A stretch of 64,000 nt of DNA from Alphaproteobacteria bacterium. Its GTDB lineage: Bacteria; Pseudomonadota; Alphaproteobacteria; UBA828. The number at the start of each line of letters is the position of its first letter. Positions within the stretch are counted from its first letter, which is position 1. The position numbers were made by a program, and so were the translations under genes. The DNA is taken from assembly GCA_963422645.2 (NCBI GenBank), contig CAXXVO010000007.1:512001-576000 (forward strand), in the 5' to 3' direction. Below are positions 2,965 to 45,173 of the stretch, in pieces. The notes below the pieces were generated by a model, which worked only from the letters and a program-made list of their open reading frames with translations, searched no databases and was not told the origin of the DNA.

Positions 2965-3283
2965 GACAGGCCGCGACCGCGGCCCGCCGCTTAGCGGCGC
3001 CCTCGCGCGCCCGCGCGCGTATCCTCGCGACGCGGAGGCGCCGGCCGTAGGCCGGCTGCCGTGAGCGACAAAGAAGCAGAGCGTTTCCGTGTAGAGATCC
3101 AATTACGAGACTTCATCGTGATAGAGGATGATTCAATTTTCGTAACTACCCAGGTACCCCAATCCTGAGTTGAGGACGGTGATTATGGCGGCGGCCGCGG
3201 CCTGGTTCTGCCACCGCGATTGGTTCTTGACCTCATAGAGTTGCGGGACTATGGACTGCTCTCTCGCGTGACGGGAGCGGTCC

Positions 3284-3949
3284 ATGGGGTATTTCGGCTC
3301 GAAGGCGACAGCAGGTCTGTGCCAAGCGCTGATTGCGCTGATGCCGCCGCACTCCGTCTACATCGAAAGCCACCTTGGGGGCGGGGCGCTGATGAAGCGC
3401 AAGCCGCCGGCCGTGCGTTCGATCGGCATCGACCGCGATGCGCAGGCGCTCGAGGCCTTCGTCTGCGACTACCCGGTCGATCTGGTTCACGGCTGTGCCC
3501 ATGACTTCCTGGCCTCGTTCCCGTTCCTGGGCCCGGAGCTGGTTTACAGCGATCCGCCCTATCTGCACGCGACCCGCCGCTCGGCGCAGCGCTACCGCTT
3601 CGAGTACGAGGAGGCCGGCCACGTCGCGCTTCTCGCGCTGCTCAAGGCTCTGCCCTGCCAGGTCATGATCTCGGGCCATCCGTCGGCGCTCTATGACGAG
3701 GTGCTGGCGGGATGGCGCCGGCTGGCGCTGCAGGTCACGACCCAGGGTCTGGTGCGAACCGAGGTCGTCTGGTTCAACTACGCCCCCGACCGGATGCATT
3801 GGGCCAGCCACGCAGGCCGGAACTTCACCGACCGCCAGCGCATCAAGCGCAAGGCAGCCAACTGGGGCCGGCGCTACCAGGCCTTGCCGCCGGGCGAACG
3901 CCTCGCCGTGCTCGCCGCCATGATGGCCGTCGAGGCCGAAGACACGTGA
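3284..3949 (+). CDS. Short D12/Dam-class N6-adenine DNA methyltransferase
   Basis: GYFGSK (motif X), YIESHLGGGAL (motif I), GIDRD, YSDPPY (motif IV); 221 aa with little room for a TRD. Confidence 0.85.
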   Translation: MGYFGSKATAGLCQALIALMPPHSVYIESHLGGGALMKRKPPAVRSIGIDRDAQALEAFVCDYPVDLVHGCAHDFLASFPFLGPELVYSDPPYLHATRRSAQRYRFEYEEAGHVALLALLKALPCQVMISGHPSALYDEVLAGWRRLALQVTTQGLVRTEVVWFNYAPDRMHWASHAGRNFTDRQRIKRKAANWGRRYQALPPGERLAVLAAMMAVEAEDT

Positions 3950-5484
3950 CGGTGTCGCACTGGCACGAAGACCTCGCCGCCCGTAACGAGGCCTTCTGCT
4001 GCCTGAAGGAGCTTCTCGAGCCATCATCCCTCGCAACCACTGTCGTCGTTGCCGTCCGGGAATGGGGGCAGGGGCTGCTGCGATCAGCCACCGCGCTCGC
4101 CCGGGAAAATGCCGCACTCGAGCAGGAGAACGCGGCCCTGCGCGAGCGCATCGCCGAACTCGAGCGCAGCGCGGCCCTCAACAGCACCACAAGCAGCAAG
4201 CCCCCCGCCAGCGACGGGCTCAAGAAGAAAAGCGGAGCCCAGAGGCGCACCCAAAGCCAGCGCGGAAAGTCCGGCGGGCCCAGTGGCGGCCAGCCCGGCC
4301 ACAAGGGAACCACCCTCGCGCGGAGCGACAGCCCGGACCGTGTCGTCGATCACCACCCCTCCACCTGTTCCGGCTGTGGCGTCGAGCTCTCGGACGCCGA
4401 CCGGCAAGGCGCGCCCGCCTGTCGGCAGGTCTTCGACGTACCCGAGCCGCAGCCTCTCGAGGTCACCGAACACCGCGCCCATCGCTGCCTCTGCGGCGCA
4501 TGCGGCACGCTGACACGAGCCGCCTTCCCGCCGGGCGTCACCGCCCCGGTCCAGTACGGCCCTCGCATCACCGCTTGGGTGAGTTACCTGCTGTACGCCC
4601 AGTTCGTGCCCGAGAAGCGTCTGGCCGAACTCATGAGCGACATCTTCGCGGTGTCCATCTCCACTGCCACGATCGCCGCCATGGGCCGGCGCACAGCGCA
4701 GCGCTTCGAGGGCTTCCTCGACCATGTCGCCGATCTGATCCGCACGCAGGCGCCGGTCAAGCACCTCGACGAGACCGGCCTGCGTATCGCCGCCCGTACC
4801 CGCTGGCTCCATGTGCTGTGCACCCCGTTGCTCACCGTCCTGCGCATCGGCGAGGGACGCGGCGATGTCGAAAAGAACCTGAAAGGCATCCTCGTCCACG
4901 ACGACTTCGCCCCCTACTTCACCATCAAGGGCGTCCGCCACGGCGCCTGCAACGCACATCACCTGCGCGAACTCCAGGCCCTGATCGACATCGAGAAGGA
5001 GGAATGGGCGGCGAGCATGCACCGCCTGCTTCAGCGCGCGCGCAGGGCCGCCCGCTTCGCCCGTGAGAAAGACCGTCAAGTCCCCGCCTCCCTGGTGGCC
5101 CGCATCTCAAGGGCATGGGACCGTATCCTCGAAGAAGCCATCGCCTTCCATGAGGCCCAACCGCCGCTCCAGATCGCAAAGCGAGGGCGAAAGAAACGCC
5201 GCATCGGCCACAACCTCGCGCGCCGCCTTCAAAAGCATAAGGAGGGCTGCCTGCGCTTCCTCACCGACCTGCGCACGCCGTTCACGAATAACGAGGCGGA
5301 GCGTGACATCCGTATGAACAAAGTGCATGAGAAGATCTCAGGCGGCTTCCGCTCCCTGCAAGGCGCCTGCAACTTCGCCGGAATGCGCAGCGTCATCGTC
5401 ACCGCTCGAAAGCAAGGCTGGAACATCCTGCAAATCCTGGCGCACCCGGAACCGATGCAGCTGATCCCTATACTGCGCTCCTGA
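3946..5484 (+). CDS. IS66 family transposase (TnpC-like)
   Basis: NSTTSSKPPASD, GGQPGHKG, CxxC zinc motifs, HLDETG, CNAHHLRE, TNNEAERDIR. GTG start at 3946 overlaps the MTase stop (GTGA). Confidence 0.92.
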   Translation: MTVSHWHEDLAARNEAFCCLKELLEPSSLATTVVVAVREWGQGLLRSATALARENAALEQENAALRERIAELERSAALNSTTSSKPPASDGLKKKSGAQRRTQSQRGKSGGPSGGQPGHKGTTLARSDSPDRVVDHHPSTCSGCGVELSDADRQGAPACRQVFDVPEPQPLEVTEHRAHRCLCGACGTLTRAAFPPGVTAPVQYGPRITAWVSYLLYAQFVPEKRLAELMSDIFAVSISTATIAAMGRRTAQRFEGFLDHVADLIRTQAPVKHLDETGLRIAARTRWLHVLCTPLLTVLRIGEGRGDVEKNLKGILVHDDFAPYFTIKGVRHGACNAHHLRELQALIDIEKEEWAASMHRLLQRARRAARFAREKDRQVPASLVARISRAWDRILEEAIAFHEAQPPLQIAKRGRKKRRIGHNLARRLQKHKEGCLRFLTDLRTPFTNNEAERDIRMNKVHEKISGGFRSLQGACNFAGMRSVIVTARKQGWNILQILAHPEPMQLIPILRS

Positions 5485-5864
5485 ACTTCTCCGGCTCATC
5501 CTGAGTATCGCTGTCCTCTCATCTTGTTCGCGACGCGGCGTTCATCATCCTCTCGCGCTCAAGAGAGTAGGCACCCCCGCGGCGTGGGGGCGTTGACGCA
5601 AAAGGAACTGGCTTGTTCCATAAGAGAGAGGGGGTACCTGGGCAGTTACCAATTTTCGATGGTCATACGTTACGATGTTGTTTTAACAGGTGATAGTTGG
5701 TATGTCGACTGTTTAGATAGGATTTTTGTAACTGCCCAGGTTCTTGCTGTGAAAATTCTCTGGGATTCGGCACAACGCTACCCACGCGACGCCCGTGTGC
5801 TCCTCTGGGGTCGCCGGGTTTCACAGCTCACGATGCCCCTCTTGCGGACTGCGACCGGTAAGCT

Positions 5865-6887
5865 CAGACTTCCTGACCTCGTGATGCTGGCTGTTCTGGG
5901 CAGCGTGCCGGGAACTCCTTGAATTCTGATACATTTCGGTTGTTTCAGGCGGTTTTTCGCTGGGTGTCGCGCCCGAGGTCTGATAGTATAATTTGATACC
6001 AATTGCACGGTCTCAACCATGCCCAGTACCCTCCCAATGTGCCCTCCAGAGGCGGTCTCGATCGGCAACAGCTGCTTCGCCGTCCTGATCTCGGACGACA
6101 CCTTCACCTACTTTTCCAACCTCATTCCCTTTGACAGCCACGCCGCCGATGACCGCACGGCCATGCTCTTGCGGATCGGCCGCCTCGCGGCGATCAGCGC
6201 GGTCTCGCCGCAGGAACTGGCTGACGCTTTCGCTGTCTCGCGCGCGACGGTGCAGCGCGCACGACGGCGCTACCTGGCCGAGGGCGAAGCGGGGTTCATG
6301 AAGCCCCGGCGCGGTCGCGGGCCGTCGGTGTTCACTCCGGAGTTGGCGGAGAAGGCGACGGCGTTGCTGGCATCGGGCCTGAGCGGCTCTGCGGCGGCCC
6401 GGGTTCTCGGCGTGTCAGCGCCATCGGTCAACAAGTGGCGCCGTCAGGGACTGATCGGCAACACGGAGGCGGATGGGGAGCCCGGACGCTCAGCGCTGGC
6501 TGCGCCGCCTGACGCGGGTGCGGCTCCTGAAGGCCGTGTCGATGAAGAGAGTACCGGTGCCCCGGGGCCGGAGACGGCGCCGGGGCTGGAAGCGCAGCCG
6601 CAAACGGATCGCAGCGCGCGCGATCGGCGGGACCGGCAGGCGCCGATGGGGCGTGCGACTTGCGATGTTCCGGCTCGGGTTCTGGCCAGTTGTGGCCTCC
6701 TGCGGGTCCACATTCTTGGCCTCGCAAACGACGCCTGCGACCGTTGGATCGATGCGGTTCTGAGCGACCTGAACGCCACCGAAACGGTCTTCCCCGGCAC
6801 CCGTCTGCGCATAGTCTACGACATCGACGGGGCCTCGGAATCCGCGCGGCTCGTGTCACCTAAAATCAGCAGAGGTCAGGAAGTCTG
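5865..6887 (+). mobile_element. Internally deleted, non-autonomous derivative of the CAGAC-ended IS at 54189-56702
   Basis: 16-bp perfect TIR CAGACTTCCTGACCTC; TSD AAGCT at 5860-5864 and 6888-6892; the empty site GGTAAGCTACC is present in IS66-B copy 2. Confidence 0.92.
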
Positions 6888-6888
6888 A
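6019..6888 (+). pseudogene. Transposase with the catalytic core deleted (N-terminal HTH region fused in frame to the C-terminus)
   Basis: Matches the N-terminus (MPSTLP...VLASCG) and C-terminus (LLRVHILG...RGQEV) of the transposase at 54188-56546, joined at a TGG microhomology. Confidence 0.88.
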
Positions 6889-7023
6889 AGCTACCCCGAT
6901 GTGGCCCGAAGTCCGCCCGCGCGACGGGCACCGATTTTCATTCTATGGGGTGGTCCAGCACGGCGTCGACCATGATCGTTTATGAGAATGGCTCCGCTGT
7001 TGGAGAACCCGTGCCAGGTGAGC

Positions 7024-8529
7024 TTACGCGCACTTGACGGTGGCGATGAGCCGATCCGATGGGCTGGTCAGGGCTTCGATGATATTCCAGCCCTGCTTTC
7101 TGGCGGTGGTGATGACGCTGCGCAGGATGGCGAAGTTCTCGGCCCCCTGCGCGGACCGGAAGCCCCCGGAGATCTTCTGGCGCAGCTTCATCATCCGAAG
7201 GTCGCGCTCGGCCTCGTTGTTCGTGAACCCGACCTCGAGGTCGATCAGGAACCGGAGCACCGCGCATTTGTGGTCGCGCAGCCTCAAGGCCGGATTGTGA
7301 CCGATCCTTCGCTTCCGGCGCTTCTTCCTCTTGCCAGGCGAGAACGGTGGTTGGCTCTCGTGAAAGGCCAGCGCATCGGCGATGATCTCGTCGTATCGGC
7401 GCTCGATCAGCGCCACAAGCCTCGCCGGAACGGCGATATCCTTGTCCAGCGCGATGCGGGCGGCGCGATTGGCTCGGCGCAGGAGCTGCTGCATCCGCCG
7501 GGCCCAAGCCTCCCCTTCGATGTCCACCAGCGCCTGCAACTCCCGCAGGTGATGGGCGTTGCACAGGCCGTGCTCCACCCCTTCCATCGCGAAGTACGGC
7601 TTCCAGTGATCGTGCACGACGATGCCGGAGACACCCGAGAGCAGGGCGCCGCGCTTGCCGCTGACCCGGTACGCCGCCAGCAGCGGCGTGCAGATCACAT
7701 GAAGCCACTGCGTCTGACCGCCGATCCGCAAGCCGGTCTCGTCCATGTGTTTCACCCGCGCCGTGCCCGCCGCCAGGTCCTGTATGTGCAAGGCCGCGTC
7801 CCGCAGCCGCTCGGCCGCCCTCTCGCTCATCGTCGCCAACGTCGCAGCCGTCACCGGCGCGCCGAAGAGCTCGGCCATCACCTGCGACAGCCGATCCTCC
7901 GGCAGGAAGTGAGCGTGCTGAAGGTAGACCGCCACCCCGGCAATGCGCGGGCCGTACTGCACCGGCGCCGACACCCCGTCGGGGAACGCCGCCCGGGTCA
8001 CCGTCCCGCAATGCCCGCAGCACTTGGCATGCGCCCGGTGCTCGGTCACCTCCAGGGGGCTCGGCTCGGGCAGATCGAACACCTGGCGGGCGACGGGCGT
8101 TCCCGCCCTGGCCGCGTCCGAAAGCGGCGAACCGCATCCCTTGCAGGAAGCCGGGACGTGATCCTTCACCCGATCCGGGTGATCGGCGCGGCGCAGCGTC
8201 TTGCCCTTGTGGCCGGGCTGGCCACCGGGCTTGCGGCCCGATTTGCCGCGCAGGCTTCGGGTTCGCCGCTTCGAATTCGGCTTCCTCAGCCCATCGCTCG
8301 AAGGCGGCTTGCCGCTGTTGCCGCTGTTGAGGCCGAGACGGCGCTCCAACTCCTCGATGCGCTCGACGAGACGCGCGACTTGCTCTTCCAGCCGCGCGTT
8401 CTGCTGCCGAAGCCAGGCATTTTCCTCCCGAAGCCGGGCGTTCTCCTCCTCCAGGCGGGCGATCTTCTGCGCGGGCGTTTCGGGCGCTGCTCCCGTCGAA
8501 GGGCCGCGCGGCGACTCGGGATTGCTCAT
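7024..8529 (-). CDS. IS66 family transposase
   Basis: NSGNSGKPPSSD, GGQPGHKG, HMDETG, CNAHHLRE, TNNEAERDLR; 501 aa intact. Confidence 0.93.
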   Translation of the reverse strand: MSNPESPRGPSTGAAPETPAQKIARLEEENARLREENAWLRQQNARLEEQVARLVERIEELERRLGLNSGNSGKPPSSDGLRKPNSKRRTRSLRGKSGRKPGGQPGHKGKTLRRADHPDRVKDHVPASCKGCGSPLSDAARAGTPVARQVFDLPEPSPLEVTEHRAHAKCCGHCGTVTRAAFPDGVSAPVQYGPRIAGVAVYLQHAHFLPEDRLSQVMAELFGAPVTAATLATMSERAAERLRDAALHIQDLAAGTARVKHMDETGLRIGGQTQWLHVICTPLLAAYRVSGKRGALLSGVSGIVVHDHWKPYFAMEGVEHGLCNAHHLRELQALVDIEGEAWARRMQQLLRRANRAARIALDKDIAVPARLVALIERRYDEIIADALAFHESQPPFSPGKRKKRRKRRIGHNPALRLRDHKCAVLRFLIDLEVGFTNNEAERDLRMMKLRQKISGGFRSAQGAENFAILRSVITTARKQGWNIIEALTSPSDRLIATVKCA

Positions 8530-8651
8530 GTCGTTGTTGAGTCATTTCCCGAAATTCCCGTCAAGCCCTTTCCACCAACTCCGAACGAGAAACGCCTCAA
8601 TCCACTGGCCCAAAATGACAAATCAGACGACCTGGGCAGTTACCATTTAAG

Positions 8652-10540
8652 GTAACTGCCCAGGTTCTTGCTGTGAAAATTCTCTGGGATTCGGCACAAC
8701 GCTACCCACGCGACGCCCGTGTGCTCCTCTGGGGTCGCCGGGTTTCACAGCTCACGATGCCCCTCTTGCGGACTGCGACCGGTAAGCTACCCCGATGTGG
8801 CCCGAAGTCCGCCCGCGCGACGGGCACCGATTTTCATTCTATGGGGTGGTCCAGCACGGCGTCGACCATGATCGTTTATGAGAATGGCTCCGCTGTTGGA
8901 GAACCCGTGCCAGGTGAGCTTACGCGCACTTGACGGTGGCGATGAGCCGATCCGATGGGCTGGTCAGGGCTTCGATGATATTCCAGCCCTGCTTTCTGGC
9001 GGTGGTGATGACGCTGCGCAGGATGGCGAAGTTCTCGGCCCCCTGCGCGGACCGGAAGCCCCCGGAGATCTTCTGGCGCAGCTTCATCATCCGAAGGTCG
9101 CGCTCGGCCTCGTTGTTCGTGAACCCGACCTCGAGGTCGATCAGGAACCGGAGCACCGCGCATTTGTGGTCGCGCAGCCTCAAGGCCAGATTGTGACCGA
9201 TCCTTCGCTTCCGGCGCTTCTTCCTCTTGCCAGGCGAGAACGGTGGTTGGCTCTCGTGAAAGGCCAGCGCATCGGCGATGATCTCGTCGTATCGGCGCTC
9301 GATCAGCGCCACAAGCCTCGCCGGAACGGCGATATCCTTGTCCAGCGCGATGCGGGCGGCGCGATTGGCTCGGCGCAGGAGCTGCTGCATCCGCCGGGCC
9401 CAAGCCTCCCCTTCGATGTCCACCAGCGCCTGCAACTCCCGCAGGTGATGGGCGTTGCACAGGCCGTGCTCCACCCCTTCCATCGCGAAGTACGGCTTCC
9501 AGTGATCGTGCACGACGATGCCGGAGACACCCGAGAGCAGGGCGCCGCGCTTGCCGCTGACCCGGTACGCCGCCAGCAGCGGCGTGCAGATCACATGAAG
9601 CCACTGCGTCTGACCGCCGATCCGCAAGCCGGTCTCGTCCATGTGTTTCACCCGCGCCGTGCCCGCCGCCAGGTCCTGTATGTGCAAGGCCGCGTCCCGC
9701 AAGCCGCTCGGCCGCCCTCTCGCTCATCGTCGCCAACGTCGCAGCCGTCACCGGCGCGCCGAAGAGCTCGGCCATCACCTGCGACAGCCGATCCTCCGGC
9801 AGGAAGTGAGCGTGCTGAAGGTAGACCGCCACCCCGGCAATGCGCGGGCCGTACTGCACCGGCGCCGACACCCCGTCGGGGAACGCCGCCCGGGTCACCG
9901 TCCCGCAATGCCCGCAGCACTTGGCATGCGCCCGGTGCTCGGTCACCTCCAGGGGGCTCGGCTCGGGCAGATCGAACACCTGGCGGGCGACGGGCGTTCC
10001 CGCCCTGGCCGCGTCCGAAAGCGGCGAACCGCATCCCTTGCAGGAAGCCGGGACGTGATCCTTCACCCGATCCGGGTGATCGGCGCGGCGCAGCGTCTTG
10101 CCCTTGTGGCCGGGCTGGCCACCGGGCTTGCGGCCCGATTTGCCGCGCAGGCTTCGGGTTCGCCGCTTCGAATTCGGCTTCCTCAGCCCATCGCTCGAAG
10201 GCGGCTTGCCGCTGTTGCCGCTGTTGAGGCCGAGACGGCGCTCCAACTCCTCGATGCGCTCGACGAGACGCGCGACTTGCTCTTCCAGCCGCGCGTTCTG
10301 CTGCCGAAGCCAGGCATTTTCCTCCCGAAGCCGGGCGTTCTCCTCCTCCAGGCGGGCGATCTTCTGCGCGGGCGTTTCGGGCGCTGCTCCCGTCGAAGGG
10401 CCGCGCGGCGACTCGGGATTGCTCATGTCGTTGTTGAGTCATTTCCCGAAATTCCCGTCAAGCCCTTTCCACCAACTCCGAACGAGAAACGCCTCAATCC
10501 ACTGGCCCAAAATGACAAATCAGACGACCTGGGCAGTTAC
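8652..10540 (-). mobile_element. IS66 element 'B', copy 2, in tandem with copy 1
   Basis: Same TIRs; separated from copy 1 by 8 bp (CATTTAAG); TSD GGATTTTT at 5720-5727 and 10541-10548 flanks the dimer. Confidence 0.92.
8920..10426 (-). pseudogene. IS66 transposase frameshifted by +1 near 9701 (real or a sequencing error)
   Basis: TCCCGCAAGCCG here versus TCCCGCAGCCG in copy 1; the ORF is split into 8876..10426 and 8920..9702. Confidence 0.85.
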
Positions 10541-10749
10541 GGATTTTTTAGAACGTATAGGACAGAATTTATTTCGGGGAGACAGTTGCATTGGGGTGTC
10601 AGATGAGTGCGTGTGAGAGTATGGCCGACGTGGGTTATGGTATCCAATGGATAGGTGCCATTTGATATATATTTGGGAATTCTTACGATTTCGGTCGAAT
10701 TTGAGGGTAATCTATACGGTATTGGGACGACGGACGACGGGGCACGGAC

Positions 10750-11413: not shown

Positions 11414-11862
11414 GCAAGCCGAGAAAGAAGCCGCCCGCGCGCAAGGAGTCGCGCGGGAGGACGTACACGATCTCGTGCACCGACGAGCAGTGGGCGGCGA
11501 TTCAGGACGGAGCGGAGCGGGCCGGCAAGAATGTCTCGACGTGGTTCGTCGAGTGCGCGCTGACCGTGGACCCATGGCCCAGGAAGCACCGCCGGCTGGT
11601 GCTGAACGAGAGGGAGCAGCGCCGCCACGCGCGGGCGGTGGCGGTGAGCGCCCGGAACCTCGGCGCGGACGAGGCGGACGGAGCCGGCGATGTTGGGGCC
11701 GAACTCAGGGCGCTCATGGCCGCGCGGCTGCGCGGGATGGACCGGCGCGGCCGGCGCGAGAACGCGCTGGCGCTGCTGCGCCGGGCGTTCGGCGACGATG
11801 CGGCGCAAACCGTCACCGCGGCGTTCATACCGGACGCGCTGTTGAGCGGCGTGGAAAAGTGA
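11410..11862 (+). CDS. Ribbon-helix-helix (MobC/CopG-like) protein 3, 3' end replaced by an IS21 end
   Basis: TTG start overlaps the previous TGA; TYTISCTDEQWAAIQDGAERAGKNVSTWFVECAL; last codons lie in the IS21 IRL from 11840. Confidence 0.6.
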   Translation: MSKPRKKPPARKESRGRTYTISCTDEQWAAIQDGAERAGKNVSTWFVECALTVDPWPRKHRRLVLNEREQRRHARAVAVSARNLGADEADGAGDVGAELRALMAARLRGMDRRGRRENALALLRRAFGDDAAQTVTAAFIPDALLSGVEK

Positions 11863-12025
11863 CCCCCTATTGGAGATGCCGTAATGGGGCTTGGCGCCGG
11901 CGTGCAGCGTCTCGGCCTGTCGCGATGACGGCGAATCGGTTGTCGTTGCCCTTACACGCGTAGCGTGTTCACGGGGTCTTGCCGCAAGGCGCGCCCCAAT
12001 TCCTCTGGAGGAAAGGGCAACGACA

Positions 12026-13066
12026 ATGGACGTCTGTATCGGGCTGGATGTATCGCTGGCAAGCACGGCGGTTTGCGTTCTCGACGAGAAGGGCAAGATC
12101 GCGACCGAGGCGCAGGTCGCCAGCACGCCTGAAGCGCTGGTTGGGTTCCTGCACAAGCTGCCGCACGAGATCACCGCGATCGGTCTCGAGGCCGGTCCCT
12201 TGTCCCACTGGTTGCACAAGGGAATGACCGACGCCGGCTTCGAGGCCGTGTTGATGGAGACCCGGCAGGTAAAGGGTGCGCTGAAGGCCATGCCGATCAA
12301 GACCGATCGCCGGGACGCCGAGGGCATCGCACGGCTGTTGCTGATGGGGTGGTTTCGGCCGGTGCACTGCAAGTCGGTGTCATCGCAAGAGATGCGAGCC
12401 CTCCTGACCTCGCGCAAGTCCGTGCTGGACGCGATCATCCGCCTGGAGGTCTCGCTGCGCGGCGTCCTGCGTAACTTTGGCCTGAAGCTGGGCCTGATCT
12501 CGAAGGGCCGCTATGAGGCCCGAGTGCGGGAGTTGGTCGCCGGCAACGCGATGCTGGAAGCGGCAGCCGAACCGATCCTGGGCGCGCGGGCGGCCCTGCG
12601 CCGCGAGTTCGCCGAGCTGGAGAAGCTGGTCCGCACTCTGGCAAGGCAAGACAGGGCATGCCGCCTGTTGATGACCATGCCGGGCGTGGGGCATGTCATA
12701 GCCCTGACCTTCAAGTCCGCGATCGACGACCCGGAGCGGTTCCGAAGATCGAAGGATGTCGGCCCCTGGGTAGGGCTGACGCCGGCGCGGGAGCAGTCCG
12801 GGGAGAGGGATATTGTCGGCCGGATCACCAAGGCCGGCGATGCCGGTCTGCGCGCGGCTCTTTACCAAGCCGCAACGGTGATGCTGAACCGCACAGGGCC
12901 GAACTGGCTGAAGGCTTGGGCGCTACGTTTGGCGAAGCACAGGGGCAAGAAGCGCGCGACCGTTGCCTTGGCCCGGCGCATCGGTGTTGTGCTTCACCGA
13001 ATGTGGCGGGATGGAACCGAGTTCCGCTTTACGCGCGAGGAAGCGATGGCGCTTCGGACGGCATAG
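12026..13066 (+). CDS. IS110 family DEDD recombinase/transposase
   Basis: IGLDVS, GLEAG, KTDRRDA, MPGVG, GLTP..QSGE (catalytic Ser), ALARR. ATG at 12026. Confidence 0.95.
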   Translation: MDVCIGLDVSLASTAVCVLDEKGKIATEAQVASTPEALVGFLHKLPHEITAIGLEAGPLSHWLHKGMTDAGFEAVLMETRQVKGALKAMPIKTDRRDAEGIARLLLMGWFRPVHCKSVSSQEMRALLTSRKSVLDAIIRLEVSLRGVLRNFGLKLGLISKGRYEARVRELVAGNAMLEAAAEPILGARAALRREFAELEKLVRTLARQDRACRLLMTMPGVGHVIALTFKSAIDDPERFRRSKDVGPWVGLTPAREQSGERDIVGRITKAGDAGLRAALYQAATVMLNRTGPNWLKAWALRLAKHRGKKRATVALARRIGVVLHRMWRDGTEFRFTREEAMALRTA

Positions 13067-13129
13067 GCGCGGCTGCATCCCATCGGCAGTCAGCGAGGAG
13101 AGGAGGAAAGAGCCGCGCCTGAAGGTGGG

Positions 13130-13330
13130 CGAGCCACCAACGTCCCCTCGCCGGGACGCGGTCCCCGATGATGCACGTGGGCCCACTTGTTTGCCGAACC
13201 GGCCTGTCGTGTTCGAGCACGCTGTGGAGATAGGCACTCGGGAACCGATTTGGACTGGGCATGATGTTGGCAGCCGATGCGCTGACCACGGACAGAAGCG
13301 AGAACCCGGCGAAGGACACAAGACGTTGAG
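13130..13330 (+). ncRNA. Predicted seekRNA/bridge RNA of the IS1111-type element (boundaries approximate)
   Basis: GGGCCCACTT (13179-13188) and TGGAGA (13225-13230) match the target; GGCAT (13258-13262) and ACAGA (13292-13296) match the donor junction. Confidence 0.7.
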
Positions 13331-13534
13331 CAAGCGCGAGATCGATACGGTCGGCCCCATTGCACCTGACACCGGCAACCTCCTCCGCGCCTCACCCGGC
13401 GCCTCATAGCCAGGCCGAAGGAGCCCCTACACCACGCCAGGAAAACAACTGATTGGCGCGACAATGATCTATTGAAAATCGAGCTTGACGGGAAACGCCC
13501 CATTACAGAAGTGGGCCCCTGGGGTCGGACAGTT

Positions 13535-14688
13535 TCATGCGGCGGTTTTGACCGGGGTGCGGGGTTGTTTCTCCTCGAAGCGGTTGGGGCTCAGGTATCC
13601 GAGGGCGGAGTGTAGGCGTCTCTCGTTGTAGCTGTCGATGAAGCGGGGCAGGTGCTCCGCCACGTCTTCCGCGCTCTCGAGGGCCATGGGATAGACGCCC
13701 TCGACCTTCAGGGTCTTCATGAAGCTTTCCATCATGGCGTTGTCGTAGGGGTTGCCGCGCCGGCCCATCGAGCCGACCAGGCCGTGTTCGTCGAGCAGGG
13801 CCCGGTAGGCCTGGGCGGCGTATTGCGAGCCCCTGTCGGAGTGGTGGATGCAGCCGGGTGGCGGGTTGCGGCCCTCGATCGCCGTCGCCAGCGCCGCAAG
13901 GGTTAGCCGGGCATCGATCCGCCGGCCGAGGGCGTAGCCCACGATGCGCCGCGACCACGCATCCATGATCGCCGCCAGATAGACGAAGCCGCCCAGGATC
14001 GCGATGTAGGTCAGATCGGCGACCCAGAGCTGGTTCGGACCATCGACATCGCGCTCCCTGGAGCGGTCCGGGAAGACGGGCTCGTCGTGGTCGCTGTCGG
14101 TGGTGGCGACGAAGCGGCGCCGGCAGGGCGGATGCAGCGCGTGCTCGCGCATCAGGCGCTTGATCTTCTTGTGGTTCACCACCCAGCCGCGATGCCTCAG
14201 CGCCGCCTGCATGCGCCGCCAGCCGTAGGCTTCGAACTCATCCTTGATCGCGTGCATGGCCTCCACCAGCGCGGTGTCGTCTGCCGAGCCCTTGGGCTTG
14301 TCGTAGTAAGTAGAATGCGCGATCCCCATCAGTCGGCATCCTTCGGCGACGGAGAGGCCTTGGGGCCGGTGATGACGGACATGGGCGCGTTTCTCGGCCG
14401 GCGTCCTTGCCGCTGAGCCCCCTTTAGAAACTCGAGCTCCAGGGCCTGCTTGCCGACCAGGCGCTCGAGCGCCGCGATCCGGGCCTCGTATTCCTGGATC
14501 GTGTCGGCCGCCTCGGCGTCCTCGTCGAAGGCGCCGGCCTCGTACTTGTCCACCCAGATCCGGATCAGGGTGCGGGAGAGCTCGTGCCGACGGGCCAGGC
14601 CGTGCAGCGTCTCGCCGGCGAGATACTCCTGAACGACCTGGCGCTTGAACGCGATGCCGTGGGTGCGGTGGGTTCGGTGCTTTGCCAT
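13535..14688 (-). CDS. IS3 family transposase OrfAB (OrfA 14329..14688; OrfB ends 13535; probable -1 frameshift)
   Basis: OrfA HTH; OrfB WVADLTY, HHSDRGSQY, DNAMMESF DDE motifs; slippery-like TTTCTAAAGGGGG on the minus strand at 14418-14430. Confidence 0.92.
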
Positions 14689-14763
14689 GGGCGTCGATCC
14701 TTCGAATGCCCGGTGCACCGGTCAAATAAATTCAAGCCACCTGTCCGGCCCCAGGGGCCCACT

Positions 14764-16396
14764 TCTGTAATGGGGCGTTTCCCGTCAAGCTCGATTTTCA
14801 ATAGATCATTGTCGCGCCAATCAGTTGTTTTCCTGGCGTGGTGTAGGGGCTCCTTCGGCCTGGCTATGAGGCGCCGGGTGAGGCGCGGAGGAGGTTGCCG
14901 GTGTCAGGTGCAATGGGGCCGACCGTATCGATCTCGCGCTTGCTCAACGTCTTGTGTCCTTCGCCGGGTTCTCGCTTCTGTCCGTGGTCAGCGCATCGGC
15001 TGCCAACATCATGCCCAGTCCAAATCGGTTCCCGAGTGCCTATCTCCACAGCGTGCTCGAACACGACAGGCCGGTTCGGCAAACAAGTGGGCCCACGTGC
15101 ATCATCGGGGACCGCGTCCCGGCGAGGGGACGTTGGTGGCTCGCCCACCTTCAGGCGCGGCTCTTTCCTCCTCTCCTCGCTGACTGCCGATGGGATGCAG
15201 CCGCGCCTATGCCGTCCGAAGCGCCATCGCTTCCTCGCGCGTAAAGCGGAACTCGGTTCCATCCCGCCACATTCGGTGAAGCACAACACCGATGCGCCGG
15301 GCCAAGGCAACGGTCGCGCGCTTCTTGCCCCTGTGCTTCGCCAAACGTAGCGCCCAAGCCTTCAGCCAGTTCGGCCCTGTGCGGTTCAGCATCACCGTTG
15401 CGGCTTGGTAAAGAGCCGCGCGCAGACCGGCATCGCCGGCCTTGGTGATCCGGCCGACAATATCCCTCTCCCCGGACTGCTCCCGCGCCGGCGTCAGCCC
15501 TACCCAGGGGCCGACATCCTTCGATCTTCGGAACCGCTCCGGGTCGTCGATCGCGGACTTGAAGGTCAGGGCTATGACATGCCCCACGCCCGGCATGGTC
15601 ATCAACAGGCGGCATGCCCTGTCTTGCCTTGCCAGAGTGCGGACCAGCTTCTCCAGCTCGGCGAACTCGCGGCGCAGGGCCGCCCGCGCGCCCAGGATCG
15701 GTTCGGCTGCCGCTTCCAGCATCGCGTTGCCGGCGACCAACTCCCGCACTCGGGCCTCATAGCGGCCCTTCGAGATCAGGCCCAGCTTCAGGCCAAAGTT
15801 ACGCAGGACGCCGCGCAGCGAGACCTCCAGGCGGATGATCGCGTCCAGCACGGACTTGCGCGAGGTCAGGAGGGCTCGCATCTCTTGCGATGACACCGAC
15901 TTGCAGTGCACCGGCCGAAACCACCCCATCAGCAACAGCCGTGCGATGCCCTCGGCGTCCCGGCGATCGGTCTTGATCGGCATGGCCTTCAGCGCACCCT
16001 TTACCTGCCGGGTCTCCATCAACACGGCCTCGAAGCCGGCGTCGGTCATTCCCTTGTGCAACCAGTGGGACAAGGGACCGGCCTCGAGACCGATCGCGGT
16101 GATCTCGTGCGGCAGCTTGTGCAGGAACCCAACCAGCGCTTCAGGCGTGCTGGCGACCTGCGCCTCGGTCGCGATCTTGCCCTTCTCGTCGAGAACGCAA
16201 ACCGCCGTGCTTGCCAGCGATACATCCAGCCCGATACAGACGTCCATTGTCGTTGCCCTTTCCTCCAGAGGAATTGGGGCGCGCCTTGCGGCAAGACCCC
16301 GTGAACACGCTACGCGTGTAAGGGCAACGACAACCGATTCGCCGTCATCGCGACAGGCCGAGACGCTGCACGCCGGCGCCAAGCCCCATTACGGCA
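14764..16396 (-). mobile_element. IS110 family, IS1111-type element, copy 2 (inverted)
   Basis: Reverse complement of 11877-13509, same length, identical transposase translation. Confidence 0.9.
15207..16247 (-). CDS. IS110 family DEDD recombinase/transposase
   Basis: Identical translation to 12026..13066. Confidence 0.95.
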   Translation of the reverse strand: MDVCIGLDVSLASTAVCVLDEKGKIATEAQVASTPEALVGFLHKLPHEITAIGLEAGPLSHWLHKGMTDAGFEAVLMETRQVKGALKAMPIKTDRRDAEGIARLLLMGWFRPVHCKSVSSQEMRALLTSRKSVLDAIIRLEVSLRGVLRNFGLKLGLISKGRYEARVRELVAGNAMLEAAAEPILGARAALRREFAELEKLVRTLARQDRACRLLMTMPGVGHVIALTFKSAIDDPERFRRSKDVGPWVGLTPAREQSGERDIVGRITKAGDAGLRAALYQAATVMLNRTGPNWLKAWALRLAKHRGKKRATVALARRIGVVLHRMWRDGTEFRFTREEAMALRTA

Positions 16397-16493
16397 TCTC
16401 CATATTGGGGGTGATCGGCGTCCAAAATTGCCCCCCCCTGGATTTGTGTCCATGAACACACCTCGTCGTTTGGACGGACGAGGTGGGGGGGAG

Positions 16494-17402
16494 ATGCTGG
16501 TTGTGGAAACGATCGCGAAGATCCGTCGGGATCGTCTGGTGAAGGGCGTTCCGATCAAGAAGCTCGCCCGGGATTTGAGGGTTTCCAAGAACACGATACG
16601 CAAGGTGGTTCGGGGCGATGCGACCTCGCACAGCTACGCGCGCAAGATCCAGCCGATGCCGAAGCTTGGGCCGTGGGTCGACGAGCTCGAGCGCCAGCTG
16701 GAGGCCAACGAGAAGAAGAAGCGCCGGGATCGCCTGTCCCTGCTGCAGATCCATGAGGACCTTGGCGAGCTGGGCTACAAGGGCGGCTATGATGCGGTCC
16801 GGCGCTACGCCAAGGCGTGGCGGCGCCGGCGCCGTCTGTTATCGCCGTCGCAGGCCTATGTGCCGCTGATCTTCGACCCTGGCGAGGCCTACCAGTTCGA
16901 CTGGAGCCATGAGTACGCGCGTCTGGCGGGTGCGACGACCAAGGTGAAGGCGGCGCACATGCGGCTCTGCCACAGCCGGATGTATCTGGTCCAGATCTTT
17001 CCCCGCGAGAGCCAGGAGATGGTGTTCGAGGCACATGAACGTGCCTTCCGCCTCTTCGGCGGGGTCTGCCGGCGGGGCATCTACGACAACATGAAGACGG
17101 CGGTGAACACGATCTTCGTCGGCAAGAAGCGGGACTACAACCGCCGCTTCCAGGAGATGTGTTCGCACCATCTGATCGAGCCTGTGGCGTGCACGCCAGG
17201 GGCGAGCTGGGAGAAGGGGCAGGTTGAGAAGCAGGTGGGAGACCTTCGTGGGCGTCTGTTCGCGCGCAGCCCGCGGGGCCGCTCCTACGCCGAGATCAAC
17301 GAGTGGCTGATGGATCGGTGCATAGAGGAGGCCAAGAAGCAGCCGCATCCGACGATCCCGGGCAAAACGGCGCGAAGATGGAAACAAAAAGGAGTGGAGT
17401 GA
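16494..17402 (+). pseudogene. istA: Truncated IS21 transposase IstA
   Basis: Nearly identical to 47890..49404 up to HPTIPGKT, then diverges at ~17371. Confidence 0.88.
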
Positions 17403-17757
17403 GTCATGGGATGGGGTGGGTTGCTTTGGTTCCTGATTAAGCGTGATATTACTGGTAGTTGTGGATTGGTGCAAGAGGATTGTGGTGGTGGTGGGCTGAT
17501 GTAAGAGAGGGGAGTCTTGGAGGGGTGAGTTGCATTCTGGGAAGTAAATACGTATGTCTGAGTAGATGGATCTGTCTGAGTGGAGGGCATGCGGTGGATT
17601 TGCGTTTGGATAGAAGCGATAAGGCGCTGAGCTGGAGAGACGTATCGGGATGGGGATGGGTTATTTGCATTATAAGGGGTGGTGCAGGTGATTTTGACAA
17701 GAATGCGGGTCCGGTGAGCTGCGTCAGGCTTGGCTGCAAGGTTCTCGGGGCGCAATC

Positions 17758-17809
17758 ATGAGCCGCAGGCCGGCGGAGCGCCGCACCCAGCACGCGGTCA
17801 TGGCGACGG
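17758..17809 (+). pseudogene. 5' stub of an RHH gene paralogous to 10750..11070, cut by element 'C'
   Basis: MSRRPAERRTQHAVMAT versus MAGPGGEKRKRRCVMAT. Confidence 0.45.
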
Positions 17810-17959
17810 TGAGCGCGCGCGGTCTTTCAGCGGGGATCGGGGCCTGATCCGCTCGGATTTGTTGAGGTTTTGGGGCGGGTGCCCCTCGGCGAACTTGCAA
17901 GAAGTTCGCCGGGGGGCTTTGTCTCGTGGTGACGGTCACAATCGCCAGAGACGGCCCCA

Positions 17960-18577
17960 ATGTCGCACAACATTTTCCGCCACTCCATGCTTTGCAACGC
18001 CCTGGTCTGGGCCTGGCTGCGCGAGGTCGATGAGGCCGAGGCGGCGCGCTGCCGCGAGGCGGGCTGCCGACACTGCCCCGGCAAGCTGCACAGCGCGACG
18101 TATCCGCGCAAGCCGTACGGTCTGGCAGCCGAGTTGAGGGAAGAGGGCACGCGGCGGTTCAGCTTCTGCTGCGCGGATTGCCGCCTGCGAGCGACCCCAC
18201 CATCGGTACGATTCTTCGGGCGCCGCTTTTATCTGGGCGCCCTGTTCGTTCTGTTGAGTGCACTGGTTCTGAGAGGCGGGGTGCGGTTGCAGACGATCAA
18301 GCGGAAGTGGGGGGTCTCGGTCGCCACACTGCGCCGCTGGCGGAAGTGGTGGCTGGAGGCGTTCCCGGCGACGGAGCCCTGGGGAGCGAAGCGTGGCGAA
18401 CTGGTGATGCCACCCGAGGAGGTGCCGCTGCTCTTCGTGCTGCGGCAGATGCGGGGCGGACGCTTCGGTGAGCGTCTGTTCCTGAGCCTGATCTGGTTCA
18501 AGCCGTGGACGGGCTATTGCGGGCTCGGCGATGGCTCGGCGCCGCCCGCAGAAAGTGTTCCTGTCACGCCCGGATAG
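17960..18577 (+). CDS. Cys-rich (Zn-finger-like) + HTH accessory protein of transposon 'C'
   Basis: CRHC...CCADC and an HTH-like segment GVSVATLRRWRKWW; identical to 44507..45124. Confidence 0.7.
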   Translation: MSHNIFRHSMLCNALVWAWLREVDEAEAARCREAGCRHCPGKLHSATYPRKPYGLAAELREEGTRRFSFCCADCRLRATPPSVRFFGRRFYLGALFVLLSALVLRGGVRLQTIKRKWGVSVATLRRWRKWWLEAFPATEPWGAKRGELVMPPEEVPLLFVLRQMRGGRFGERLFLSLIWFKPWTGYCGLGDGSAPPAESVPVTPG

Positions 18578-18626
18578 GGCGTTCTACATGGGCATCTCTC
18601 CGATGCGGCGAGGGAGGGATGCCGGA

Positions 18627-19444
18627 ATGGACAAGGACGACGCAGGCGCCAGGCGCGAGAAGTGGGCCCGGCTGCGCTTTGCGGTGGTGGGGCCGCTTCT
18701 GGCTTCACCGCCGCCTGCAGGCCAGCTGGGGGCCGAGTTCGAGCGTCTGTCGCAGCGCGACTGGGAGCACCCGTCGGGCAAGGGGCCGGTGCGCTTTGCG
18801 GCCTCGACGATCGAGCGCTGGTACTACCGGGCGCGGGCAGAGGAGCAGGACCCGGTCAAGGCGCTGCGCCGGAAGCCTCGGACCGACGTCGGCCGCGAGC
18901 GGTCCATGTCGGCGGGGCTGATCGCGGCGCTGCGCGAGCAGTACCGGGTCCATCCCTCGTGGGCGGCGCAGCTCCACTACGAGACCCTCAAGGCTCATGT
19001 TGCGACCCATCCCGAGCTCGGCCCGATGCCGTCCTACGCGACGCTGACGCGGGCGATGCGCAATCGCGGCCTGGTGCGCGAGCGCCCCAGGAAGTGGCAC
19101 GAGGGTGAGGACAAGCCGGCGGTCGAAGCCCGCGAGGTCCTTAGCTACGAGGTGTCTCGCAGTCACGCGCTGTGGCACGGGGACTTCCACCACGGCAAGC
19201 GCCGCGTGCTGACGGCGTCGGGCGAATGGCAGACGCCCATCCTGCTCGGCTTCCTCGACGACCACTCCAGGCTTGGCTGCCACCTGCAGTGGTACCTGGA
19301 GGAGACCGCCGAGGTCTTCGTCCACGGGCTCTGTCAGGCCTTCATGAAGAGGGACTTGCCCAGGTCCCTGCTGACCGACAACGGCGGGCCGATGACGGCG
19401 GGCGAGGTCGAGGAGGGCTTGCACCGCCTCGGCATCGTGGGGGC
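18627..19444 (+). pseudogene. Truncated rve/IS481-like DDE integrase
   Basis: LWHGDFH, FLDDHSR, LLTDNG; lacks the NGKIE glutamate region; fused to a CAGAC-IS end. Confidence 0.85.
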
Positions 19445-19550
19445 GCGACACCCAGCGAAAAACCGCCTGAAACAACCGAAATGTATCAGAATTCAAGGAG
19501 TTCCCGGCACGCTGCCCAGAACAGCCAGCATCACGAGGTCAGGAAGTCTG
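19441..19550 (-). mobile_element. Isolated left-end fragment of the CAGAC-ended IS
   Basis: Matches 56593-56702 and ends GAGGTCAGGAAGTCTG. Confidence 0.88.
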
Positions 19551-42373: not shown

Positions 42374-43060
42374 ATGGGCGGACTGGAATCGGGACAGCCC
42401 GCGCTGGCGGTGGTCGATATGCAGAACGATTTCGTCGACCACGATGTCGGCTCTTACGCGATCGGAGCAGAGCGGAACGTGACGCGGGTCGGCCGGGTGG
42501 TGGCCGCGGCCCGGCGCGCACGAGCGCCGGTGGTGTTCAGCCAGGAGGTGTAGCGGGCCGACGGGGTCGGCGGCGGGCGTCTCCTCCGGGATGGGCGGAG
42601 CGGCTGGTTCACCGGCAAGCGTCCCAGCGCCGCGCACGGAGAGCCGCCGGCACCGCCCTGCATCGAAGGCGCGAAGGGCTTTGAGATCGTCGACGAGCTG
42701 GCGCCCGAGCCTGGCGACATCCGCATTCTCAAGGGGCGCTTCAGCATCTTCGTCGGCACCGAGCTCGACATGATCCTGCGGCGCATCGGCGTCGACACGC
42801 TGCTGACCGCAGGCGTGTGCGGCGGCGTCAGCATGCTGTGGACCGCGGGCGACGCCTATCAGCGTAACCACAAGGTGCACGTGTTGGAGGACTGCGTGGC
42901 CGGCGCCAGTCCGCAAGGCCACGACGCGGCGCTCACGCTCACCCGGCGCTCACCAATGCCGGCAGGTTGCCGAGGGGCCGCGCAGCCCACCGGACGGCGG
43001 ACCGCGGAGGGGTGCCGGAGTGGTCGAACGGGGCGGTCTCGAAAACCGCGGCATGCGTGA
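42374..43060 (+). pseudogene. Isochorismatase/cysteine hydrolase family gene with an in-frame TAG
   Basis: ALAVVDMQNDF...QEV*RADG...KGRFSIFVGTELD...TAGDA...VLEDCVA in one frame; TAG at 42551-42553; the 3' end runs into the tRNA. Confidence 0.82.
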
Positions 43061-43093
43061 GCGTACCGTGGGTTCAAATCGTCCCCTCCGCCA
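43006..43093 (+). tRNA. tRNA-Ser(CGA) with a defective T-stem (possible pseudo-tRNA)
   Basis: Acceptor GGAGGGG/CCCCTCC + G + CCA; anticodon arm GCGGT-CT-CGA-AA-ACCGC; long variable arm; T arm GTGGG-TTCAAAT-CGT cannot fully pair. Confidence 0.8.
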
Positions 43094-43246
43094 CCCATCT
43101 AAATGTAACTACCCAGGTACCCCAATCCTGAGTTGAGGACGGTGATTATGGCGGCGGCCGCGGCCTGGTTCTGCCACCGCGATTGGTTCTTGACCTCATA
43201 GAGTTGCGGGACTATGGACTGCTCTCTCGCGTGACGGGAGCGGTCC

Positions 43247-43912
43247 ATGGGGTATTTCGGCTCGAAGGCGACAGCAGGTCTGTGCCAAGCGCTGATTGCG
43301 CTGATGCCGCCGCACTCCGTCTACATCGAAAGCCACCTTGGGGGCGGGGCGCTGATGAAGCGCAAGCCGCCGGCCGTGCGTTCGATCGGCATCGACCGCG
43401 ATGCGCAGGCGCTCGAGGCCTTCGTCTGCGACTACCCGGTCGATCTGGTTCACGGCTGTGCCCATGACTTCCTGGCCTCGTTCCCGTTCCTGGGCCCGGA
43501 GCTGGTTTACAGCGATCCGCCCTATCTGCACGCGACCCGCCGCTCGGCGCAGCGCTACCGCTTCGAGTACGAGGAGGCCGGCCACGTCGCGCTTCTCGCG
43601 CTGCTCAAGGCTCTGCCCTGCCAGGTCATGATCTCGGGCCATCCGTCGGCGCTCTATGACGAGGTGCTGGCGGGATGGCGCCGGCTGGCGCTGCAGGTCA
43701 CGACCCAGGGTCTGGTGCGAACCGAGGTCGTCTGGTTCAACTACGCCCCCGACCGGATGCATTGGGCCAGCCACGCAGGCCGGAACTTCACCGACCGCCA
43801 GCGCATCAAGCGCAAGGCAGCCAACTGGGGCCGGCGCTACCAGGCCTTGCCGCCGGGCGAACGCCTCGCCGTGCTCGCCGCCATGATGGCCGTCGAGGCC
43901 GAAGACACGTGA
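43247..43912 (+). CDS. Short D12/Dam-class N6-adenine DNA methyltransferase (identical protein)
   Basis: Same translation as 3284..3949. Confidence 0.85.
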   Translation: MGYFGSKATAGLCQALIALMPPHSVYIESHLGGGALMKRKPPAVRSIGIDRDAQALEAFVCDYPVDLVHGCAHDFLASFPFLGPELVYSDPPYLHATRRSAQRYRFEYEEAGHVALLALLKALPCQVMISGHPSALYDEVLAGWRRLALQVTTQGLVRTEVVWFNYAPDRMHWASHAGRNFTDRQRIKRKAANWGRRYQALPPGERLAVLAAMMAVEAEDT

Positions 43913-44356: not shown

Positions 44357-44506
44357 TGAGCGCGCGCGGTCTTTCAGCGGGGATCGGGGCCTGATCCGCT
44401 CGGATTTGTTGAGGTTTTGGGGCGGGTGCCCCTCGGCGAACTTGCAAGAAGTTCGCCGGGGGGCTTTGTCTCGTGGTGACGGTCACAATCGCCAGAGACG
44501 GCCCCA

Positions 44507-45124: not shown

Positions 45125-45173
45125 GGCGTTCTACATGGGCATCTCTCCGATGCGGCGAGGGAGGGATGCCGGA

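Follow-up and report, generated by a model that had tools for sequence, protein, structure and literature searches.

An IS66-family insertion sequence (IS) in the genome of an alphaproteobacterium of the lineage UBA828 carries, in front of its transposase gene, a gene for a protein with the predicted fold of DNA adenine methyltransferase (Dam), and the same gene, together with the promoter-like dyad that precedes it, recurs in front of transposases of other IS families in other genomes. The element lies in a 64,000-nucleotide stretch of contig CAXXVO010000007.1 (positions 512,001 to 576,000), which was analysed as a whole and is called the window in this paper; positions refer to the window unless another locus is named. 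With somewhat better than even confidence, we propose that the promoter-like site, the leader and the Dam-like gene form a portable autorepressor module that both drives and throttles the expression of the transposase.

In the mechanism that we propose, the Dam-fold protein would bind a CATAG-N10-CTATG dyad and shut off its own promoter. The transposase gene, which appears to have no obvious promoter of its own, would be expressed from the transcript of the Dam-like gene, and because the two genes would thus form one transcription unit (they overlap by 4 bases), transposase output would come under the same negative feedback. On entry of the element into a naive cell without repressor there would be a burst of expression; once repressor had built up, expression would fall to a low steady state, and the more copies of the element a cell held, the less each copy would be expressed.

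Structure of the element

The element occupies 2,508 bp (3142-5649), as read directly from the window sequence. Members of the IS66 family have terminal inverted repeats (TIRs) that start with GTAA and duplicate 8 bp of their target, and canonical IS66 also has the accessory genes tnpA and tnpB. Both the GTAA-type TIRs and the 8-bp duplication are present here (Table 1), which confirms the description given in an earlier, sequence-only reading of the window, in which a methyltransferase gene was placed inside 19-bp TIRs flanked by an 8-bp target-site duplication. Just two open reading frames (ORFs) in 3142-5649 have family support and neither is tnpA or tnpB, so the element fits the single-transposase subgroup of IS66, which we take to be the one known as ISBst12-like. 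The transposase matches PF03050 (4.4e-41) and NF033517 (289.7 bits, cut-off 180), and also zf-IS66 and DUF6444. The TGA of the Dam-like gene (3947-3949) shares the bases GTGA with the GTG start codon of the transposase gene (3946-3948), and no slippery run was seen by eye in 3712-3949, where both reading frames overlap. No restriction gene lies inside the element; its 5' neighbour is a cupin-domain ORF and its 3' neighbours are further ISs, and the earlier statement that the methyltransferase has no restriction partner stands as far as the element goes.

The element resembles other single-transposase IS66 members in its transposase domains, its GTAA.. ends and its 8-bp duplication, and two nearby copies of a 1,889-bp IS share the end motif and have no extra gene. 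It differs in the 724-bp cassette that separates the transposase gene from the left end. Derivation of the element from the neighbouring 1,889-bp IS by addition of the cassette was considered and rejected: beyond the terminal 14 bp, the similarity between the two is confined to the transposase core, at 67%.

Linkage of the cassette to transposases

A scan of genomes, with one genome per species, gave 354 loci with the Dam-like gene. The survey used the best 79 of these, each with an identity of 66% or more to the query. The 39 assemblies that hold them represent Alpha-, Beta- and Gammaproteobacteria, Tectimicrobiota, Planctomycetota, Bacillota, Chloroflexota and Acidobacteriota; the gene is often multicopy, and a single assembly contributes as many as 8 of the surveyed loci. 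A transposase or its remnant lies directly 3' of the Dam-like gene in 76 of the 79 loci, and all 79 are IS-linked. On the same strand, the downstream gene is an IS66-type transposase or remnant in 67 loci, an IS701-family transposase in seven (NF049999, 300-313 bits), an ISAs1-like transposase in one (Pfam matches below cut-off) and an IS1634 transposase in one. It is not recognisable in the other three, each of which is preceded by an IS66-like left end and two of which are contig ends.

The IS1634 locus (L055) and the loci with no transposase were tried as separate classes and rejected, since they have either IS66-like left ends upstream (L036, L055, L046 and L064) or N-terminal remnants of an IS66 transposase (L032, L068 and L075). 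Because of the IS66-like left end upstream of it, the IS1634 in L055 was probably inserted later. A second pairing with an ISAs1-like transposase was found through a second cassette in locus L040 (80% nucleotide identity). The two cassettes of the L040 region lie 2.7 kb apart (3223-5214 and 5940-8124), each with its own dyad, the first leading into an ISAs1-like and the second into an IS66 transposase.

The transposases of the IS66 set fall into two deep lineages, one 70-92% and the other about 31% identical to the window transposase; the Dam-like protein of the set is 66-95% identical to that of the window. When copies within single genomes were compared, sharp element borders were found to enclose both genes. 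Examples of the IS66 type are 2,431 and 2,293 bp long, with ends that start GTAACTAC and 8-bp duplications, and examples of the IS701 type are 2,790 and 2,537 bp long, with ends that start AGCTCGACTTTGT. From the stop codon of the Dam-like gene to the transposase start there are -8 to +36 nucleotides (nt) in 57 of the 79 loci and +67 nt in four IS701 loci; the gap is larger or undefined in the other 18, mostly those with broken or absent transposase genes. The 4-base GTG overlap of the window element is repeated in 22 of the 27 closest loci (L001-L027), in agreement with the close coupling of the two genes that had been read from the window alone. The Dam-like gene is an integral part of these elements and its association with them is systematic. 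A one-off capture, against which a survey of the neighbours of this methyltransferase clade had been recommended, is not borne out, and neither is a tie to IS66 alone, as the same cassette is found in IS701 and ISAs1-like elements.

The sequence-only reading had taken a second copy at 43105 as showing that the two genes move together. The Dam-like gene is indeed identical there, but just the first 1,252 bp of the element are present, comprising the left end, the dyad (43190-43216), the whole Dam-like gene (43247-43912) and about the first 150 codons of the transposase gene. As this copy (43105-44356) lacks the right end and any target duplication that could be checked, it is weak proof of joint movement when taken alone; the proof comes from the related loci.

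In a gene tree made by a quick method, with several open forks, the IS-borne proteins are split from two plasmid proteins with a support of 96, and the IS701-linked genes nest within the IS66-linked ones with 96-97% support. When transposase partners are mapped onto this tree as labels, 13 changes are needed against a minimum of 7, which, together with the nesting of the IS701-linked genes, argues that the cassette has moved between transposon families more than once. The Dam-like gene is also kept by purifying selection inside the elements, given the low ratio of nonsynonymous to synonymous substitution rates (0.12-0.29 in 11 pairwise comparisons). For the transposase this ratio is 0.14-0.49 in nine same-type pairs, and in most of them the Dam-like gene is as low or lower.

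Such mobility might also be expected of a hitch-hiker, that is, a selfish module which lands beside transposase genes and brings no benefit to the IS. The presence of one cassette, with sharp borders at 3227 and 3950, beside unrelated transposases and the excess of label changes in the tree would agree with this, as would the intact Dam-like gene beside broken transposases in L026/27, L032, L068 and L075, although the loci were chosen by similarity of this gene, which favours intact copies. However, the cassette brings neither a recombinase nor ends, and its position and orientation are fixed: it is always upstream, on the same strand, and usually at most 36 nt from the transposase start or overlapping it. 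Because such an arrangement would be hard to obtain without selection for co-expression, we regard a hitch-hiking cassette as quite improbable.

Promoter-like dyad and leader

The cassette was delimited by comparison with two IS701-type loci (L028 and L030), to which the window is similar only from 3227 to 3950 or 3952, at 82-83% identity; position 3227 is the T of TTGACC. Its first part is a promoter-like site in which two inverted half-sites are set between and across the hexamers (Table 1). With up to 3 mismatches allowed and within 131 nt 5' of the gene, this motif was found in the window and in 78 of the 79 loci, 51 times as an exact match and in 40 distinct versions, at 42-72 nt before the start codon; the sole miss, L047, has no upstream DNA. 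By comparison, the motif was matched twice in 2,000 pieces of 130 nt drawn at random from these loci, and in the 64-kb window it has two sites, both in cassettes. In each half-site, the spacer-side one included, the five bases are conserved as strongly as the -35. The spacing of the hexamers, the inverted half-sites and the conservation of the latter argue for the layout of an operator within a promoter.

The motif is absent from the IS ends, and CATAG or CTATG occurs within the element only at 3234, 3249 and 3691. Methylation of IS ends as a general role of the protein was therefore considered and rejected, since the ends of IS66 and IS701 differ and the dyad motif is not in them.

Downstream of the dyad the leader can fold into a hairpin whose 3' arm holds the Shine-Dalgarno sequence. 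Among 16 cassettes that were folded, most have a leader hairpin (z +1.45 to -3.4), the sequences of which differ between lineages; hairpins with a 3' arm over the ribosome-binding purines are also seen in L015, L026, L041, L055, L057, L037 and L033. This hairpin could block the translation of read-through transcripts or could be a second DNA dyad, and we treat it as a secondary, unproven feature.

Table 1. Positions of the parts of the IS66-family element and of its second copy in the window
Feature	Position	Strand	Basis or remarks
Left TIR	3142-3160	+	GTAACTACCCAGGTACCCC; 18 of 19 positions agree with the reverse complement of 5631-5649; GTAACT.. end also in related IS66 loci
Right TIR	5631-5649	-	GTAACTGCCCAGGTACCCC when reverse-complemented; 18/19 match to left TIR
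8-bp target-site duplication, CAATTTTC	3134-3141 (left copy), 5650-5657 (right copy)		Direct reading of the sequence
Portable cassette (promoter/operator-like site, leader, Dam-like gene)	3227-3950	+	Sole DNA similarity to IS701-type L028/L030
Promoter-like site with dyad	3227-3255	+	TTGAC-NN-CATAG-N10-CTATG
-35-like TTGACC	3227-3232	+	Sequence
Inverted half-sites CATAG and CTATG	3234-3238 and 3249-3253	+	Reverse complements, 10 bp apart
-10-like TATGGA	3250-3255	+	17 bp from the TTGAC hexamer
Leader hairpin, 3' arm with Shine-Dalgarno GGGAG (3273-3277)	3254-3282	+	Folding, -17 kcal/mol, z -2.5
Dam-fold gene of the Upf31 family, 221 aa	3284-3949	+	ORF inside the TIRs, alignments, fold model
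IS66-family DDE transposase, 512 aa from GTG 3946	3946-5484	+	Profile matches; N-terminal residues conserved from residue 1 in L002-L023
Second copy, partial	43105-44356	+	100% identical over 1,252 bp to 3142-4393

The Dam-like protein

The 221-aa protein has no match in Pfam and scores 22.1 bits against TIGR00571, for which the cut-off is 114.85, so that it falls outside the curated Dam/MethyltransfD12 families; a few of its relatives carry a precomputed PF02086 annotation. Searching the chains of the PDB with the sequence gave no match even at an E value of 10. An AlphaFold2 model built on 54 homologues (predicted local distance difference test, pLDDT, 92.6; predicted template-modelling score, pTM, 0.87) consists of a Rossmann core at residues 10-164 followed by a two-helix hairpin (181-199 and 203-220). 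The best Foldseek matches of this model, at E values of about 2e-7 and template-modelling scores of 0.5-0.56, are 4rtj, 2g1p, 2dpm and 1yf3, which represent E. coli Dam, DpnM and T4 Dam, and by model and Foldseek together the protein has the Dam fold. The model accounts for the whole chain with the Rossmann core and the helical hairpin (181-220) and holds no inserted target-recognition domain. The conserved basic helix RQRIKRKAANW begins near residues 180-181. These results uphold the earlier view of a short methyltransferase-like protein with no target-recognition domain and with a basic C-terminal extension.

Besides the basic C-terminal stretch, the ORF carries a GGG motif and DPPY. Across the same 54 homologues, down to 40% identity, residues G5, H23, G32, D90, P91, P92 and H113 are invariant and K7, E28, G34 and Y93 nearly so; these best-conserved residues of the family are the positions of the glycine motif that binds S-adenosylmethionine (SAM) and of the DPPY motif. 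The earlier naming of the gene as a DNA adenine methyltransferase therefore holds for the fold and for the SAM and DPPY motifs and does not hold for the curated profiles. Like the Dam-type (alpha class) methyltransferases E. coli Dam, T4 Dam and DpnM, the protein has a Rossmann fold with motif I ahead of DPPY. It differs from them in its length of 221 aa, its lack of an inserted recognition domain, its extra C-terminal hairpin, its scores below the Pfam and NCBIfam thresholds and its lack of a PDB sequence match, and also in that its homologue Upf31 did not methylate GATC, as reported by Elg et al. (bioRxiv 10.1101/2024.02.05.579024). Residue 71 is Cys (G-C-A) in all 28 IS-clade proteins of one alignment (A1); the equivalent residue is Asp in two plasmid homologues (alignment A2) and in the consensus of a wider alignment (A3), within G-D-A or, in one plasmid, S-D-A.

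The family is large. A word-indexed search gave 3,706 proteins at E <= 0.001, the best 120 of which have lengths of about 220 aa and identities of 70% or more, and an exhaustive search gave 5,660 clusters at 50% identity, also at E <= 0.001. Fusion forms account for 31 matches among proteins of 388-2,000 aa, almost all of them singletons and several joined to an IS66 domain. In the rare single-member ORFs P0121-P0133 an IS66 transposase domain is joined to a Dam-like protein that is 67-91% identical to the query; such fusions are probably sporadic frameshifts or read-through and not a regular product. Prediction of a homodimer, from two copies and alignment A3, scored 0.10 and 0.26 against a mark of 0.42, a result that we count neither way.

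Plasmid homologues

Among 72,556 plasmid records, 196 hold a homologue of the Dam-like protein, and 134 of these are conjugative. None of the 196 matches reaches 60% identity, which means that this plasmid collection does not contain the IS clade, and no near-identical element DNA was found in the 72,556 plasmids. The plasmid homologues often stand beside genes of the plasmid-entry type, such as RadC and ArdC-like genes. Six cases were opened. In one of them, on the Sphingobium plasmid pCFD-1-3 (L082, 2495-4771), an IS1380-family ISSp1 transposase lies 200 bp downstream of a 51%-identical homologue, probably by chance, the alternative being a fourth IS family; the same protein is present on at least 13 sphingomonad plasmids.

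The gene upf31.0 of IncP-1 beta plasmids is one of these homologues; its product Upf31, from pBP136, is 46% identical to the window protein from end to end. The two have in common an N-terminal G-x-K, the GGG and DPPY motifs, a basic RIKRK..W helix (W194) and an ER..A helix. The upf31 promoter of pBP136 reads TTGAC-AG-CATCG, in the same register as the cassette, and a 56%-identical homologue on a Xanthomonas plasmid has CATAG-N10-CTATG in its promoter. With full-length homology that includes the C-terminal domain, and with a repeat-bearing promoter directly upstream, the window gene falls within the Upf31 family.

In the report on Upf31 by Elg et al. (bioRxiv 10.1101/2024.02.05.579024), the predicted model of Upf31 is confidently Dam-like, but the protein gave no GATC methylation in a dam- strain and no kinetic signal when methylation-free E. 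coli was sequenced by the single-molecule real-time (SMRT) method. It repressed its own 68-bp promoter, upf31p, from 4.76 to 0.09 XylE units; its C-terminal domain, which is predicted to dimerise, was required for the phenotype, and the protein was proposed to act through KorB. Upf31 and the window protein are thus alike in sequence over their full length, in motifs, in a repeat directly after TTGAC, and in Dam fold; autorepression is reported for Upf31 and would be a further point of likeness. They differ in that Upf31 is a stand-alone plasmid gene with no transposase downstream, has the half-site CATCG in place of CATAG and is linked to a KorB route, for which the IS has no KorB.

These data bear on the view that the element carries, as a passenger, an active orphan N6-adenine methyltransferase whose target is short and frequent and which would alter the host methylome or give protection from restriction on plasmids and phages. 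Its Dam fold with best matches to E. coli Dam, DpnM and T4 Dam, the invariance of G32, D90, P91 and P92 with Y93, G34 and E28 close behind, and the frequency of homologues on conjugative plasmids (134 of 196), often beside RadC and ArdC-like genes of the entry region, all speak for such an enzyme. Yet a short, frequent target should have shown itself in the GATC protection and SMRT assays of Upf31, which were negative (10.1101/2024.02.05.579024), and the model has no Dam-type recognition domain. An IS that moves within one genome is, moreover, already modified by its host, and this view leaves unexplained why the gene keeps a constant place before the transposase with a conserved dyad promoter. 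We consider an orphan methylase of this kind unlikely. The earlier suggestions that the protein protects transposition intermediates from restriction, marks the ends of the element or alters the host methylome in proportion to copy number found no support. The ends of the IS families share nothing and lack the dyad, and Upf31 gave no methylation.

Co-variation of protein and dyad

At half-site position 2 and its mirror position, the usual A/T pair is accompanied by F181 in 69 of 69 loci and by N180 in 67 of them. A symmetric variant of the dyad, CGTAG..CTACG, occurs in four loci (L053, L065, L069 and L072), and it is precisely these that have D180-H181; a third type, CGTAG..CTATC, occurs in L073, L076 and L077, with A181. 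The four loci with the symmetric variant encode three distinct proteins that are 78-85% identical to one another. The protein of L072 is 81% identical both to that of the canonical L062 and to that of the variant L053, which argues that the co-variation is not simply a matter of close kinship. In our judgement, nothing within these sequences speaks more strongly for a protein that reads the dyad than the co-variation of residues 180-181 with it, and this co-variation lends indirect support to the proposed repression by the window protein of its own promoter.

The same co-variation could be read as that of a very site-restricted methyltransferase which targets the dyad of its own promoter; expression of the transposase would then be gated by the methylation state of the dyad, which replication would reset. 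In favour of this are the conserved SAM and DPPY motifs, the adenines on both strands of the dyad, one of which (in CTATG) is at position 2 of the -10-like hexamer, and the way in which residues 180-181 follow one base pair of the half-site. The E. coli chromosome would lack a composite target some 20 bp long, and the absence of an SMRT signal for Upf31 is therefore compatible with methylation of the operator. Such control would be akin to that by Dam at IS10 and IS50 and would differ in being self-encoded and portable to hosts that lack Dam. On the other hand, no methylation was detected for Upf31, the sole homologue tested; the position resembling motif III is Cys in the IS clade and Asp in the wider-family consensus and two plasmid homologues; and repression by simple occupancy already explains the data. 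Methylation of the dyad thus seems possible but doubtful. To about the same tentative degree, the two functions might be combined, with a reduced Dam-fold enzyme serving as repressor and also placing an epigenetic mark on its own dyad. On replication the mark would be transiently reset, giving a period in which transposase could be made, and the cassette would be a plug-in sensor of entry and copy number, adopted by IS66, IS701, ISAs1-like elements and conjugative plasmids.

Other mobile DNA in the window

The partial second copy starts 12 bp past a tRNA-Ser(CGA) gene (43005-43092) and ends inside the transposase gene, where a different repeat of 1,646 bp starts that is also present at 17810-19451 (99.7% identity). 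This repeat carries a weak rve-type integrase ORF and an AAA_25 ORF. Another repeat, at 92%, relates 47796-48500 to 16400-17104, and the regions 43005-48500 and 16400-19451 are a mosaic of mobile DNA common to two places in the window.

Downstream of the element, at 5720-10548, are the two copies of the 1,889-bp IS66-family IS, in the same orientation (5728-8643 and 8652-10540). Exactly 8 bp (CATTTAAG) lie between them and GGATTTTT is found on both outer flanks, a layout suggestive of a tandem IS dimer or of an integrated circle junction. The first copy is interrupted at 5864-6888 by about 1 kb of DNA with a helix-turn-helix ORF (6019-6888), which corresponds at 99.6-100% identity to part of a Transposase_29-type element in the region 54188-56703; the fuller copy, at 54188-56564, is divided between two overlapping ORFs. 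Two 1,672-bp IS110-family copies, 99.8% identical and inverted (11862-13532 and 14741-16412), bracket an IS3-type integrase ORF (13535-14725), so that 11862-16412 has a composite-like arrangement.

Discussion

Insertion sequences are usually described as a transposase and its ends, under the control of host factors or of what the transposase gene itself encodes. Control of transposases at the level of the promoter is known, from Dam at IS10 and IS50 and from IS-encoded repressors such as InsA of IS1. The proposed autorepressor module resembles these in that transposase synthesis would be limited at a promoter with sites that overlap the -10, and differs in that the element itself encodes the regulator, which has a methyltransferase fold and can be exchanged between IS families.

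Transporter ISs, which carry extra genes with no role in transposition, are also known, and a methyltransferase passenger is attributed to IS220 of the IS1380 family in a passage of PMC11891212 that cites Siguier 2009. The window element is similar in having a methyltransferase-like gene inside its ends. It differs in that this gene recurs with three transposase families, has its own conserved promoter and looks regulatory and not like cargo; the evidence favours a role in the regulation of transposase expression. While ISs with methyltransferase passengers as a category, promoter-level control of transposases and Upf31 as a plasmid regulator are already known, a search of full-text literature gave no description of a Dam-fold cassette as a recurrent component of ISs across families, nor of its dyad. 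The available parts of PMC9296519 and PMC3925955 do not mention such a cassette.

Several points weigh against the autorepressor module as we propose it. The invariant residues include ones of catalytic or SAM type (G32, D90, P91 and P92, in 54 diverse homologues), that would be superfluous in a pure repressor. As a -10, TATGGA is weak, and no promoter is called between 3100 and 5700 by a simple sigma-70 scan, which misses the site at 3227-3255 because the -10 lacks the final T. The centres of the half-sites are 15 bp apart, which is unusual for a simple dimer, and the co-variation of protein and dyad may stem from one or two evolutionary events, given the open forks of the quick tree. The plasmid-borne homologues are stand-alone backbone genes with no linked transposase in five of the six cases opened, so control of an IS cannot be the only role of the family. 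Our survey covers the best 79 of 354 loci, and more distant members may behave differently. Lastly, dyad binding, co-transcription and the logic of the feedback are what we infer for the IS-borne members, autorepression having been demonstrated in the plasmid homologue alone.

One conserved module with a methyltransferase fold has thus entered elements of at least three unrelated transposase families, and it is multicopy in many environmental genomes. If it acts as the autorepressor that we propose, it would provide a function and a defined DNA target for a very large family that is now annotated as 'DNA adenine methylase' and whose one tested member puzzled its investigators, and counts of orphan methylases in genomes and plasmids would include proteins that may not methylate in bulk. 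For the ISs themselves, the cassette would be a general and portable answer to the problem of every transposon, which is to jump on arrival and then stay quiet.

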